This document shows, in pieces, positions 6,882-26,511 of a stretch of 27,002 nucleotides of DNA. Under the pieces are notes generated by a model. The model had not been told where the DNA came from. It made no database searches and was given only the letters and a program-made list of their open reading frames with translations. The translations under genes and the position numbers were made by a program. This stretch comes from Candidatus Hadarchaeum sp. GTDB lineage: Archaea > Hadarchaeota > Hadarchaeia > Hadarchaeales > Hadarchaeaceae. Numbering within the stretch: the first letter of the stretch is position 1; each line of letters begins with the position of its first letter. The DNA lies in NCBI RefSeq assembly GCF_049969415.1, contig NZ_JBMFOX010000016.1, positions 1-27,002 of the forward strand, given 5' to 3'.

Positions 6882-7670
6882 TTACCGGGAGATTTCCTCG
6901 GCCCGTCTCGCCGCGGCTTTGACGGCCTCCTTGATGGCGTCGGCGACCTTCCTTTCCTCCAGTACCTTCATGCCTTCGATGGTGGTGCCCCGCGGCGTGC
7001 AAACCCGACGAATAAGTTCTTCTATTTTTTCCTCAGAGTTGAGCACAATTTCGCTCGCGCCTCGGGCGGTCTGGGCGGCCAACTTGAAGGAGATGTCCTT
7101 GGGGAGCCCGAGCTCCACGCCGGCGTCCTGCACCGCCTTCATGAGGTAAAAGAAGAATGCGGGCCCGCTGCCGCTGACCGCGGTGACCGCGCCCAAGAGA
7201 TCTTCCTCCACCGGGAAGGTGGTCCCAAGTTTGCCGAGAAGCTGCGCCACTGTTTTTTCGTCCTCGGCGGTGGCCCGGGAGCCCTTGGAGTAGGCTGAGG
7301 CCATTTGCAGCACCGCTCCACATAGATTCGGCATGGCCCGGATCACCCTCGCCCTTGTCCTAGCCTCGATGAAAGCGGTGGAGACGCCGGCGGCCACCGA
7401 GACGAAAAGCTTGCCCGCGGAGAGATCCTCGACCTCCTTGAGCACGGGTTCGACCAGATCCGGTTTTACGGCAATGAACACCACATCACACTCGCGGACG
7501 AGCTCCCTGTTGTCCGAGGTCACGCCGATCGAGAGCCTGGCCAGCTCCCTCGCCTTTCCCTCGTCCGGTTCGCTGACGACGATTTCATCCGGCTGAAGGA
7601 CACCAGATCTCAGAAACCCCTTGATCAACGAGGAACCGAGATTTCCGCCGCCGATTACGCCCACCCTCAT
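6882..7670 (-). CDS. proC: Pyrroline-5-carboxylate reductase (alternative start 7688)
   Basis: IGGGNLG Rossmann motif, AVKP, RAMPN, TAVSGSGPAF and VCTPRGTT. Confidence 0.95.
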   Translation of the reverse strand: MRVGVIGGGNLGSSLIKGFLRSGVLQPDEIVVSEPDEGKARELARLSIGVTSDNRELVRECDVVFIAVKPDLVEPVLKEVEDLSAGKLFVSVAAGVSTAFIEARTRARVIRAMPNLCGAVLQMASAYSKGSRATAEDEKTVAQLLGKLGTTFPVEEDLLGAVTAVSGSGPAFFFYLMKAVQDAGVELGLPKDISFKLAAQTARGASEIVLNSEEKIEELIRRVCTPRGTTIEGMKVLEERKVADAIKEAVKAAARRAEEISR

Positions 7671-7790
7671 CGCAACCCCACTATTCATGGTCGGCAGATA
7701 ATAAAGTCCTAATCCTCACCATTCTGAACACGCGTTGAAAAAATTTTGTTTGCGCGATGGGAGGATCGGCACGATTCCGGACTTAAATGG

Positions 7791-7803
7791 GAAAAGTTTA
7801 AAC
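7791..7803 (+). promoter_or_regulatory. BRE/TATA promoter of tRNA-Thr
   Basis: gaaaag-tttaaac lies about 25-30 nt upstream of the mature tRNA 5' end. Confidence 0.65.
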
Positions 7804-7827: not shown

Positions 7828-7956
7828 GCCCCGGTAGCTCAGTCGGTAGATTGTGGCGGAAAGCCTCAAGCCGCAAGCGCCACCTTGGTATCTCGCGCCA
7901 AGGAGGTGGAGGTCGCGGGTTCGATTCGGGACGCGAAAATCCCGCTCGGGGCTCCA
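7828..7956 (+). tRNA. tRNA-Thr(GGT) with three introns (7850-7875 at 22/23; 7891-7903 at 37/38; 7926-7939 at 59/60), CCA encoded
   Basis: Removing 26+13+14 nt gives GCCCCGG TA GCTC AGTCGGTA GAGC G CCACC TTGGTAA GGTGG AGGTC GCGGG TTCGATT CCCGC TCGGGGC T CCA (76 nt, U73). Each intron forms a bulge-helix-bulge. Confidence 0.9.
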
Positions 7957-7975
7957 CAAAATCCAAGCCCTTTCA

Positions 7976-9916
7976 TTATTCCCGGATCTCCCCTGTCCCC
8001 GGCGGCAGCACCCGCTCTATTTCATCGACCGGGACATCAAATCCCGCAATTTTGAACTTAACCTGTATCTGGCGGGCGAGTTCAGATTTCTTCACGGGTC
8101 CCGGGTAGATCTCGACGAAAACTTTCGCGTGCTTCTGGACAGCGCTCTTCGGCCCGCAGACGACCACGTTTTCGCCGTCGAGCGCCATGACGCCGACCGC
8201 CGCCCTCACCGGGACCTTGAGCAGGTTCCGCTTGCCTTGGATGGTATAGCTGCCCTTGGGGAGGTAGGTGCCCGATGGTGCCTTCTTTGAGACCTGGTCC
8301 GGCTTGGCCCAGTAGACGTCGAGGATGCCCAGACCCTCCCGCCAGGCCCGCGAATGCATGGCGGCAAACTCGGCGGCCTCGATGATGGTGGTCTCCGGTA
8401 TTTCCTTGCCCGCCGATTTGACGACGACGTGGGGTGCGCCGATGATCTCCGCGTGTAAATAGAGGTCGTTAGGATCCATGTGTTTCTCGATGATTTCGGC
8501 GTTGCCCTTGGCGTCCCTCCCTCCAATGACCAGATGTCCGTCCGAGGAGATGAACCAGCGGTGATGTTCGAACCACTTCGGCGTCCTCCTCTTCGGCGGT
8601 GGGGACACCTTGACCTCAGGGGCACCCGCCCTCAGGGCCTCAAGCTCGCGCTCCGTGGCCTCAAGGGCAGTTCTGGCACCCACCGCCTTCTCGGCGAGTT
8701 CCCGATATTCCCGGTAGTATCGCGCCGAGTTCTCGAAGGCCGAGGCCCGCGGGTCGAGCTCGATCGTCTGGCCCGCAAGCTCGACCTCCATCTTGCCCGT
8801 CTTGAAGTCCACACTCTTTATCAGCTGGGCCCAACTTTCCCCCGCCTCCTTTGATCGCTGTAAGGCCTCGAGGGCACCTTCCCAGCCCTTGCTCCTCCGG
8901 AGCCGGTCGAGCATTTTTCGTGCCTCGTTGATCTGGAGGTGATGGATGGCGATGAGGTCGGCCTTTCTCTTCGCCTCCGAAGACCTCTGGTAAAGTTCTC
9001 CGAACTGCTGCTGCTGTTCCTGCTGTCGCTTGAGCAGACCCGCCACCTTTTTCTCGTACTCCTTCCTCCGGCGTTCGCTGGCGGCCATCACCGCCACGGT
9101 GCTGAAGTACTCGTCGAGGGTCTCGTTGAACGAGCTGAACCTTTTCACCTTCTGGCCTAGGTGAGTCTTGAAATCCAGCGGGGCGAAGTCCACCGGCTTA
9201 TCTCCCTCATAGATGATGCAGGGTGCCGGCTCCGCGGAGAGGAGACCCTTCAAGGCGCCTAGGACGGCCTCCAGCTCCTTTTCCGAAAGTTCACCCGGCT
9301 TGACTCCCTTGGACACCTCGGCCCGGGCACAGACTTCTTCGGCCAGCGGTCCACCCAGCCCCAGGTTCACCGCCAGCCCCCGGACGATGTCCGGGGCATC
9401 CTTCAGTTTTTCCCTCAGCCCGTCGGCGTCAAGTCCAAACGGATCGACGCCGGTGCCGGGAGGGTAGAGGTAGGGCACGCCGGCCTTGAGGGAGCGGTGT
9501 TTCCAGGTGGCGATGCGGTAGGGCTGGATGATGTTTTTCTGAGAATCACAGAGGATAATGTTTCCCTCGCCAAAGAGTTCGGCGATTAGAACTCGCCCCT
9601 CCCCGGCGGCGAAGCTGATCTCAACGATGCGCTCGAAATCCGGTTGGCTTACGTCCGAGATCTCGGCGTTCTCGAGGTGTTTTCTCAGGAGCATGGCGAA
9701 TGAGGTCGGCTGCTTCGGCGCGCGGTAGACCCGCGTGGTGAGGTGAACCCTGCACCCGGGCTGGATTACCAGGTCCTTTCGTCCCCCCTCCCTGGAGTGC
9801 AGCCGCAGGACGATCGAGCCGTCAACTTCATAGACATTTTCAACTCGATCACCAATAGCGTTTTTAAGCTCGCGAACGCAGACCATAATGTCAAGGCTAG
9901 TCATCGACAGCTTCAC
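7976..9916 (-). CDS. rqcH: Ribosome quality-control protein Rqc2/RqcH (NFACT/NEMF family)
   Basis: MTSLD, FAMLLRKHL, DFERIV, IAELFGEGNIIL, coiled coil, WFEHHRWFISSDG..VIGGRDA..N and GTYLPKGSY. GTG 9916 follows SD GGTGAG. Confidence 0.93.
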   Translation of the reverse strand: MKLSMTSLDIMVCVRELKNAIGDRVENVYEVDGSIVLRLHSREGGRKDLVIQPGCRVHLTTRVYRAPKQPTSFAMLLRKHLENAEISDVSQPDFERIVEISFAAGEGRVLIAELFGEGNIILCDSQKNIIQPYRIATWKHRSLKAGVPYLYPPGTGVDPFGLDADGLREKLKDAPDIVRGLAVNLGLGGPLAEEVCARAEVSKGVKPGELSEKELEAVLGALKGLLSAEPAPCIIYEGDKPVDFAPLDFKTHLGQKVKRFSSFNETLDEYFSTVAVMAASERRRKEYEKKVAGLLKRQQEQQQQFGELYQRSSEAKRKADLIAIHHLQINEARKMLDRLRRSKGWEGALEALQRSKEAGESWAQLIKSVDFKTGKMEVELAGQTIELDPRASAFENSARYYREYRELAEKAVGARTALEATERELEALRAGAPEVKVSPPPKRRTPKWFEHHRWFISSDGHLVIGGRDAKGNAEIIEKHMDPNDLYLHAEIIGAPHVVVKSAGKEIPETTIIEAAEFAAMHSRAWREGLGILDVYWAKPDQVSKKAPSGTYLPKGSYTIQGKRNLLKVPVRAAVGVMALDGENVVVCGPKSAVQKHAKVFVEIYPGPVKKSELARQIQVKFKIAGFDVPVDEIERVLPPGTGEIRE

Positions 9917-9936
9917 GATCTCACCAGGTGTATGAT

Positions 9937-10338
9937 ATGGACATAACGGCAAAGCTCACCCTCACGTTTTCCGGGGCAGGGATACTTGCAGGCATCATCT
10001 CCGCTTTCCTGCCCAACGCTTGGCTGGCCTTGCTCTTCGCATTTATCTTTCTCGGTATATCTTATAAGCTGACCACATCTCTCCTGAAAAGAGGCTCAGC
10101 TTCACCCGCCCCCAGTGCTCAGGGCCCGGCGCAGACTCCACCGCAGGCCCCGCCGCAGCCGGTGAAGCAGATGGCCAACTTGAGGGGCTTCCGGCTGTTC
10201 TTCGCCACCTTGGTCACCAGAAGTGGACCCGAGGCCAAGGAAGTCGAGATGAAAATCTGGTTCTGGCCCTACTACATCATGTGGTTCATCTTCTGGGTCA
10301 TGACCTACACGATAATGTTGATCTGGTGGGCCGCTTAG
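9937..10338 (+). CDS. 3-TM membrane protein, archaeal EMC6-like/DUF5379-like, with P/A/Q-rich loop
   Basis: GILAGIISA helix, a second helix, and C-terminal WPYYIMWFIFWVMTYT aromatic pattern. ATG 9937 follows AGGTG. Confidence 0.6.
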   Translation: MDITAKLTLTFSGAGILAGIISAFLPNAWLALLFAFIFLGISYKLTTSLLKRGSASPAPSAQGPAQTPPQAPPQPVKQMANLRGFRLFFATLVTRSGPEAKEVEMKIWFWPYYIMWFIFWVMTYTIMLIWWAA

Positions 10339-17847: not shown

Positions 17848-18159
17848 GGCGGCGGGCTAGGTGGGCAGCTACCCCTTGCCTGTACCACAAATGGGGTTCA
17901 CGGTGGGCCGAAGCCTGCGGACGGCGCTCGGAACTGCGCGTCGACCTAGCTACCGGCGACGAAGTCCTGTCCCATCGGGTCGGCGGCGGCAGGGTTCAGG
18001 CCGTAGGGTCTGAATTAACTGCCCTTGCCTCCTGAATCCCCCAGGGGCGGAAGTCAGCAAGGGTGGGGAGGACGTGCGGCGCTGATGGCAAACGGGATGG
18101 AGCTTGGGGCTAGCCATCGGTGCGCAGGGAAGGCGTCAACCGCGGGCGTGCCCGCCGCC
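17848..18159 (+). ncRNA. ffs: Archaeal signal recognition particle (7S) RNA
   Basis: Terminal helix GGCGGCGGGC/GCCCGCCGCC and Alu TGTA motif. Helix 6 is TTCAGGCC-GTAG-GGTCTGAA and helix 8 is CAGG-GGC-GGAA-GTC-AGCA (18042-18059). Length 312 nt. Confidence 0.93.
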
Positions 18160-18208: not shown

Positions 18209-18312
18209 GCGGGGGTAGCCAAGCCAGGTATGGCGGCAGGTTGCTAAGGTGGACCTGCAGGTACCTGTTGGCGCATCGCGCCTCAGGGGTTCAAATCCCC
18301 TCCCCCGCGCCA
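18209..18312 (+). tRNA. tRNA-Ser(GCT) with 16-nt intron at 37/38 (18247-18262), CCA encoded
   Basis: Acceptor GCGGGGG/CCCCCGC with G73; anticodon stem GCAGG/CCTGT; long variable arm GGCGC-ATC-GCGCC; T arm AGGGG-TTCAAAT-CCCCT. BHB central helix TTGC/GCAG. Confidence 0.9.
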
Positions 18313-25005: not shown

Positions 25006-25380
25006 TCAGGTGGCAGGCTTCCTGAACTGGAGGCTGATGTACTTTGGCGTGGCGATTACCTTGGTTTCCGTGAGCCGCCCCATGTCCCCGCCGATCCCCT
25101 GACAGATGCCCTTGAGCTGGTCAATGGCCTGCTTCAATTCTTGGGGATCATGGTTCATGAGCGAGCTGATGTCCAGGATGATGATGTTTCCCGCCCGGAG
25201 TTCGTCGGCAGCCTCTTGGACGTCGGCGAGGCTGTTGAGTTCCATGCTCTTGACGTAGATGGGCTCCACCTCGCCCAGCTTTCTCGTGCCGGCGGTACTC
25301 TCGACCTCAGTGACCGGTATCTCCTGAATTGGCGCCGGCTCTGAGCGGGGCTTGCTAAAAATTTTCTTTAGCGATCTCAT
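25006..25380 (-). CDS. sepF: Archaeal cell division protein SepF
   Basis: ELRAGNIIILDI...LK....IGGDMGRL....VIATP pattern. Confidence 0.85.
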   Translation of the reverse strand: MRSLKKIFSKPRSEPAPIQEIPVTEVESTAGTRKLGEVEPIYVKSMELNSLADVQEAADELRAGNIIILDISSLMNHDPQELKQAIDQLKGICQGIGGDMGRLTETKVIATPKYISLQFRKPAT

Positions 25381-26421: not shown

Positions 26422-26511
26422 GGGCCGGTAGATCAGCTGGAAGATCACTCGCTTGGCAAACGGCTTTGTCCAGATTGCGAGAGGTCGCGGGTTCGAGTCC
26501 CGCCCGGTCCA
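26422..26511 (+). tRNA. tRNA-Ala(GGC) with 17-nt intron at 37/38 (26459-26475)
   Basis: Acceptor GGGCCGG/CCGGTCC with G3:U70 and A73; anticodon stem CTCGC/GCGAG. BHB central helix TTGG/CCAG with bulges CA|A and AT|T. Confidence 0.92.

Follow-up and report, generated by a model that had tools for sequence, protein, structure and literature searches.

The tRNA-Thr(GGT) locus

The DNA analyzed here is a single stretch of 27,002 nucleotides, referred to throughout as the window, from a Candidatus Hadarchaeum MAG of 138 contigs (G000), which is estimated to be 95% complete with 2% contamination. Positions 7828-7956 of its plus strand hold a threonine tRNA gene of 129 nt, made of four exons and three short introns. 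The gene lies in a gap of 287 nt that is bordered by two minus-strand genes, one for pyrroline-5-carboxylate reductase (6882-7688) and one of the NFACT family (7976-9952), the latter coding for a protein that shares 82% identity with proteins of two Candidatus Hadarchaeum sp. MAGs, one of which belongs to the genus of the window genome. The parts of the locus are the following:

7790-7802, plus strand: putative promoter, with TTTAAA as TATA box at -31 to -26 and, ahead of it, a purine-rich stretch resembling a BRE
7828-7849, plus strand: exon 1, tRNA positions 1-22 (acceptor 5' strand, D stem 5' strand, D loop, G22)
7850-7875, plus strand: intron 1, 26 nt, at 22/23 in the D arm; BHB core with a weak 2-bp exon-side helix
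7876-7890, plus strand: exon 2, positions 23-37 (D stem 3' strand, position 26, anticodon stem 5' strand, anticodon loop with GGT at 34-36)
7891-7903, plus strand: intron 2, 13 nt, at the canonical 37/38 site; BHB core whose outer helix is the anticodon stem
7904-7925, plus strand: exon 3, positions 38-59 (anticodon stem 3' strand, variable loop, T stem 5' strand, T loop to position 59)
7926-7939, plus strand: intron 3, 14 nt, at 59/60 in the T loop; BHB core whose outer helix is the T stem
7940-7956, plus strand: exon 4, positions 60-76 (T60, T stem 3' strand, acceptor 3' strand, discriminator T, CCA at 7954-7956)

Removal of the introns in silico leaves a molecule of 76 nt with an encoded CCA end, which ARAGORN identifies as tRNA-Thr(ggt). 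All 21 stem pairs of its cloverleaf form and all 11 scored conserved positions are as expected; the D loop has 8 nt and the variable loop 5 nt, the GGT anticodon sits in a 7-nt loop with T33 and a purine at position 37, and the overall dimensions are those of a class I tRNA. The spliced sequence can be aligned with the intron-free Thr(GGT) gene of another genome of the order (G064). A sequence-only reading of the window had proposed three BHB introns at 22/23 (26 nt), 37/38 (13 nt) and 59/60 (14 nt) that would yield a regular 76-nt tRNA on splicing. The sequence divides exactly so, the helices and bulges described for each intron have the same anatomy on re-reading, and the predicted product was recovered in silico with its 21 pairs. 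With three introns, two of them at non-canonical sites (22/23 and 59/60), and with collinear exons, the gene belongs to the multiple-intron class; a split or permuted tRNA gene was ruled out, the four exons being collinear within 129 nt.

The segment at 7790-7802 is taken here to be a putative promoter by comparison with the archaeal promoter consensus. The string TTTAAAC stands at the same distance (-31 to -25) in five of six compared loci of the genus (L004, L005, L006, L008 and L010, not L025). Two further tRNA genes of the window carry a single intron at 37/38, namely tRNA-Ser(GCT) at 18209-18309 (plus strand; intron of 16 nt), which adjoins the SRP RNA at 17850-18157, and tRNA-Ala(GGC) at 26422-26511 (plus strand; intron of 17 nt).

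BHB motifs and chance controls

Each of the three introns has a central helix with 4/4 pairs (G.U allowed) and two 3-nt bulges. In intron 1, the central helix is CGGT/GCCG (C17-T20 paired with GCCG, one G.U) with bulges AG|A and CA|A; its inner hairpin comprises 3+3 bp around a T/T mismatch, and its 3' bulge is poorly closed because the outer, exon-side helix has only 2 bp, one of them G.U. The central helix of intron 2 is TTGG/CCAA (T32-G35 paired with CCAA), its bulges are TA|T and GG|A, and it is flanked by an outer helix of 5 bp (the anticodon stem) and a single inner pair, effectively a 6-nt loop. Intron 3 has the central helix TTCG/CGAA (T54-G57 paired with CGAA), bulges AT|T and AA|T, an outer helix of 5 bp (the T stem) and an inner one of 2 bp. 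The three BHB cores are thus strict, while the flanking helices are partly relaxed. By the general rule for BHB introns, the cut falls after the second base of each bulge, and junctions placed by this rule agree with the orthologues that lack the respective intron.

The three motifs have no nucleotides in common and are compatible with one another in a single nested structure. At 37 C, the precursor fold that contains all three has a free energy of -42.7 kcal/mol vs. -53.6 kcal/mol for the MFE fold; the BHB fold is stable but is not the MFE fold. Among the competing structures, one contains a continuous helix of 7 bp that absorbs the bulges of intron 2, and another involves a second copy of TTCG that is able to pair with CGAA at intron 3.

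Chance controls relied on an enumerator of strict BHB cores, for which it required a central helix of 4 bp, with G.U counted as a pair, bulges of 3 nt on both sides of it, and a flanking helix of 2 bp or more on one side. Up to three candidates were spliced in all combinations, and the products were passed to ARAGORN and then given a cloverleaf score. From 50 BHB candidates in the region, the proposed combination emerged as the single best with 21/21 pairs, the runner-up reaching 18/21. An acceptable spliced tRNA was obtained in none of 200 dinucleotide shuffles of the region and in one of 300 random windows of the genome, that one with 18 pairs.

Detection by tRNA finders and threonine decoding

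On the unspliced window, ARAGORN called only tRNA-Val and tRNA-Ala and did not report the Thr(GGT) locus, even with introns allowed. Rfam at the gathering score returned the SRP RNA and three other tRNAs of the window, again without Thr(GGT), and the Rfam tRNA model RF00005, run over the whole genome with E-values up to 10, gave 50 matches, none of them at 7828-7956. The expectation that annotators would easily miss such a gene thus holds for ARAGORN and for the Rfam tRNA model. Over the whole genome, ARAGORN with introns made 48 calls, which include Thr(cgt) and Thr(tgt), both on contig C5. A second ggt gene was found neither among these 48 calls nor by a DNA search of the genome, which returned a single copy; the uniqueness of the gene, singled out for checking by the sequence-only reading, is consequently apparent by both approaches.

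Threonine codons in the nine Pfam-supported ORFs of the window amount to 81 ACC, 10 ACT, 47 ACG and 7 ACA (n = 145), ACC being the commonest in this set. By the ordinary wobble rules, a GGU anticodon reads ACC and ACT. From these rules and the codon counts of the nine ORFs, a Thr(GGU) tRNA would read 91 of the 145 threonine codons. The gene model fills the place of the missing decoder of the commonest threonine codon, and counts of the tRNA complement made with ARAGORN or Rfam-type tools will miss Thr(GGT) in Hadarchaeota MAGs.

Intron states and covariation among orthologues

Of 65 genomes from the order that were searched at the DNA level, 32 gave matches, the window genome being one of them, and 28 Thr(GGT) genes could be read from the loci returned. 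Their intron states vary, always at identical junctions:

22/23 + 37/38 + 59/60: 4 of 28 loci (G000, G032 and G038 of the same genus; G003 of another genus)
22/23 + 37/38 only: 2 of 28 (G007, G040)
37/38 + 59/60 only: 1 of 28 (G037)
22/23 alone: 1 of 28 (G010)
37/38 alone: 17 of 28
intron-free: 1 of 28 (G064)
no correct solution by the solver, resembling 37/38 only by eye: 2 of 28 (L030, L031)

In a MAFFT alignment of ten of these loci (A1), each missing intron appears as a clean gap at the predicted junction. Intron 1 is absent exactly at 22/23 in G036, G037, G064 and others, intron 2 is absent at the 37/38 junction in G064 and G010, and intron 3, present in five of the ten rows, is absent at its junction in G036, G010 and G064. 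Pairing according to the BHB motifs and the cloverleaf holds in 98.3% of 296 cells of A1, vs. 37.5-49.5% when the partners are slid by one to three columns. Pairs that have changed on both sides number 13, compared with 6.0 +/- 1.6 in column shuffles, none of 500 of which reached 13. The central helix of intron 1 is paired in all seven rows that bear this intron, with a CG/UA exchange, and five of the seven pairs of its inner helix are compensatory; the helices of intron 3 are invariant on A1 and so give no covariation signal. In many relatives (L012-L025, L027), the 37/38 intron is only 11-12 nt long, has three of four central pairs (a G35/A mismatch) and lacks an inner helix; this relaxed motif was found in genera g6 and g8, and also in G009 (L027), G035 and G037.

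The distribution of introns was compared with a single-protein tree of FttA (29 rows, LG+G4, SH-aLRT supports only). G000, G032 and G038 fall into a subclade of five genomes with a support of 100, which also holds G034 and G033, where Thr(GGT) is not readable. Other genomes of the genus have intron 2 only (G035, G036) or introns 2 and 3 (G037), and the three-intron genome G003 stands in another genus beside G007, which has introns 1 and 2. On this tree, introns 1 and 3 each call for at least two events and would therefore have been gained or lost more than once, in a direction that the tree does not reveal. G003 and G007, which are sisters on the FttA tree (GTDB genus g2; L007 and L009), differ in the acceptor stem of Thr(GGT) (GCCTCGG vs. 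GCCGCCG) and in the type of intron 1 (ATTG... vs. ACTAG...), the G007 gene resembling genera g6 and g10 instead. Judged from these sequences, a replacement or a transfer of the tRNA gene is possible.

Strength of the gene model and alternative explanations

We hold with high confidence that 7828-7956 (plus strand) is a functional, and apparently the only, tRNA-Thr(GGU) gene of the genome, whose product would be spliced from three BHB introns. In silico splicing, the presence and absence of introns among orthologues and covariation indicate that the gene model is very probably right; that the precursor is transcribed, cleaved, ligated and used in translation is what we infer from these same sequence comparisons.

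Splicing at slightly different junctions is quite improbable. Intron 3 could begin one base earlier (58/59), which would give the T loop TTCGAAT, or the 3' cut of intron 1 could be shifted or relaxed. The first shift draws on the succession of TTCGA and a second TTCG, since the local MFE fold of the T arm pairs CGAA with this second TTCG and not with T54-G57; the other draws on G032, whose intron 1 is longer by one base at its 3' end, which makes the 3' bulge apparently 4 nt long instead of the strict 3 nt. Against both stands the fact that the strict BHB solution alone gives 21/21 pairs; moreover, the T loop obtained by the BHB rule, TTCGATT, is identical to that of the G036 gene of the same genus, which is without intron 3.

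Still less probable is a decaying threonine pseudogene that retains its insertions, ACC and ACU being read by another tRNA that was not assembled or not recognized. A MAG of 138 contigs at an estimated 95% completeness leaves room for a second copy, and several tRNA-like loci of the genome have no solution in the census described below. Yet none of the 21 stem pairs or scored conserved bases is damaged once the introns are removed, three further genomes retain the same insertions with compensatory changes, the putative promoter box recurs at other loci of the genus, and neither ARAGORN nor the DNA search disclosed another GGT gene. Chance resemblance or an assembly chimera, in favor of which nothing was found, is the least probable explanation of all and is refuted as far as computation allows, given that no shuffle yielded any solution and that three independent assemblies, G032, G038 and G003, show the same three-intron architecture at 82-90% identity.

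A 3' fragment of the gene in a sister genome

In the Candidatus Hadarchaeum sp. MAG G034 (L003, G034:C14), only the last 16 nt of Thr(GGT) (positions 61-76) are present beside the NFACT gene, and L003 7977-8977 is syntenic with window 7940-7975. Directly upstream of the fragment, the GC content drops from 0.544 to 0.346, and the contig stops after another 1 kb; a 146-aa ORF that matches no Pfam family above the cut-off occupies the place of proC. A search of the G034 assembly for the 5' part, the anticodon arm or the whole of Thr(GGT) picked up nothing but tRNAs, Thr(CGT) among them, and a coding region. On these findings, and because the bases that precede the fragment lack the CGAA strand required for a trans-BHB at 59/60, a split tRNA-Thr was considered and rejected. 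The favored reading is that low-GC DNA was inserted, or a rearrangement took place, at the 3' end of the tRNA gene.

Host lineage and census of tRNA introns

NCBI taxonomy places Hadarchaeum, an archaeon of the hot-spring type, in the Hadarchaeota, kingdom Methanobacteriati. The sequence-only reading had surmised a SepF-encoding genome of euryarchaeal type; the contig belongs to Hadarchaeum and is of that type, and SepF has its match on the minus strand of the window at 25036-25254. An approximate census of the genome covered 51 tRNA-like loci, a few of them probably from bacterial contaminants, and found introns in about half, many at non-canonical sites:

37/38: Met/CAT, Ala GGC, Ser GGA, Ser GCT, Pro TGG, Pro GGG
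22/23 or end of the D loop: Ala CGC, Asn GTT, Gly TCC, Glu TTC, Leu GAG and one more gene
29/30 + 37/38: Arg TCT, Arg TCG
30/31: Ser CGA, Leu CAA

At least four genes besides Thr(GGT) have two introns, and Thr(GGT) is the only three-intron gene among those solved. C87:423-520, C27:10103-10172 and C5:45143-45239 received no solution, and the solutions for C6:45731, C12:20510, C18:4350 and C3:26538 are doubtful. Four very short contigs (C74, C136, C69 and C50) carry intron-less pairs of tRNA-Ile(GAT) and tRNA-Ala(TGC); the pairs resemble the spacers of bacterial rRNA operons and would represent contamination of the bin.

Two other loci of the census deserve description. The 22/23 intron of Ala(CGC) (G000:C28:2180-2272) and intron 1 of Thr(GGT) have the same architecture and common ends (ATTG...CAAGCCG), which could hint at the spread of an intron between the two genes, the common part being too short to tell homology from constraint. 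A tRNA-like locus with a CCA anticodon context, found at G000:C18:4350-4505 (minus strand, 156 nt) and at G034:C4:29592-29745 (L044), contains a long insert with GATGATGA and CTGA boxes. The locus resembles the box C/D RNA-bearing intron of euryarchaeal tRNA-Trp and may be of that kind.

Splicing enzymes and proposed maturation of the precursor

The genome has one EndA gene (C9:25337-25873, 179 aa), the sole match in searches with PF01974, PF02778 and the protein itself, and one RtcB gene (C4:14417-15724, PF01139). phmmer aligned this EndA collinearly with the M. jannaschii enzyme, an alpha4 EndA of strict specificity (PDB 1a79; E = 9e-37, 165 vs. 163 residues). In a sequence alignment, the spacing between the Tyr and His residues equals that of 1a79 and is 5 residues shorter than in ARMAN-2, with no extra loop visible. 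The loop that ARMAN-2 has at this site is the one compared by Hirata et al. with the N. equitans loop. On sequence grounds, the enzyme is of the alpha4 type.

Maturation would begin with the transcription of a pre-tRNA of about 129 nt, probably from the BRE/TATA promoter some 26-31 nt upstream. The precursor would then form three independent, non-overlapping BHB motifs, in the D arm, the anticodon loop and the T loop, each of which the 179-aa, alpha4-type EndA would cut in both 3-nt bulges, and RtcB would ligate the four exons into a 76-nt tRNA with its gene-encoded CCA. As the three motifs have no nucleotides in common, no order of splicing would be imposed.

According to two papers, EndA enzymes of the alpha4 and alpha'2 types accept only strict BHB motifs, and broad specificity goes with inserted loops (PMC3488258; PMC5829648). 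For Thr(GGT), the strict cores alone may be enough for an alpha4 enzyme. The exon-side helix is short or missing in intron 1, as it is in several further introns of the D arm in this genome. A wider and rather doubtful proposal, to which we give limited credence, is that a minimal alpha4 EndA without the known specificity-loop insertions handles the non-canonical introns of Hadarchaeum, including D-arm introns with almost no exon-side helix, and that introns are still being gained and lost, perhaps in connection with mobile elements. If it were true, tRNA splicing independent of intron position could do without loop insertions. Ongoing gain and loss is suggested by the variation from one to three introns among genomes of a single genus, always at the same sites, and it may be linked to mobile elements that target tRNA-Thr(GGT), considering that the low-GC block of G034 abuts the 16-nt 3' fragment one base from the site of intron 3.

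Comparison with known systems

A marked disruption of tRNA genes was reported in Hadesarchaea archaeon YNP_N21 with tRNAscan-SE 2.0 and SPLITS, and a figure of the same study includes a multiple-intron class (Kaneta et al., 2018; PMC5829648). Sections 9 and 16 of the paper and the legend of Figure 7 name no individual genes. The novelty claimed by the sequence-only reading, which had called the gene unexpected, is accordingly mixed: the host does lie outside the Thermoproteales, but marked tRNA gene disruption was already in print for its lineage, which weakens the claim by a yardstick that the reading itself had set, assignment to a lineage where such genes are routine. A literature search combining Hadesarchaea, Hadarchaeota or Hadarchaeum with tRNA introns (non-canonical, multiple, BHB) returned no paper beyond Kaneta et al. 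(2018). Since interrupted tRNA genes were already in print for this lineage, the worth of the present locus is the correction of an annotation together with a comparative series. Across 28 related genomes, the Thr(GGU) locus forms a natural series of zero, one, two or three introns at fixed sites, which is usable for studying the gain and loss of BHB introns and the action of an alpha4 endonuclease at non-canonical sites. The splicing enzyme offers a point of difference from YNP_N21: the paper assigns an L3 loop to the EndA of Hadesarchaea (Kaneta et al., 2018; PMC5829648), whereas the Tyr-His loop of the EndA described here has the length of that of M. jannaschii.

Among crenarchaea, the tRNA-Thr genes of Aeropyrum pernix are similar in that threonine isoacceptors carry canonical and non-canonical introns, which EndA removes in that organism; unlike the host described here, A. 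pernix is a crenarchaeon with an (alpha-beta)2 EndA, and the abstract of the report makes no mention of three introns per tRNA-Thr gene (PMC3241643). Close counterparts of Thr(GGT) are the multi-intron tRNA genes of the Thermoproteales, which likewise have up to three BHB introns at 37/38, in the D arm and in the T loop (Sugahara et al.); three is also the maximum per tRNA gene in the Thermoproteales according to a review (PMC4033280). In both cases, generic tRNA finders miss genes and near relatives differ in intron content. Two features set the present gene apart from these counterparts. On the one hand, its host belongs to the Hadarchaeota and not to the Thermoproteota. On the other hand, in place of an (alpha-beta)2 EndA with the Crenarchaea-specific loop, as in the Thermoproteales, its genome encodes a single 179-aa subunit that appears to be of the alpha4 type.
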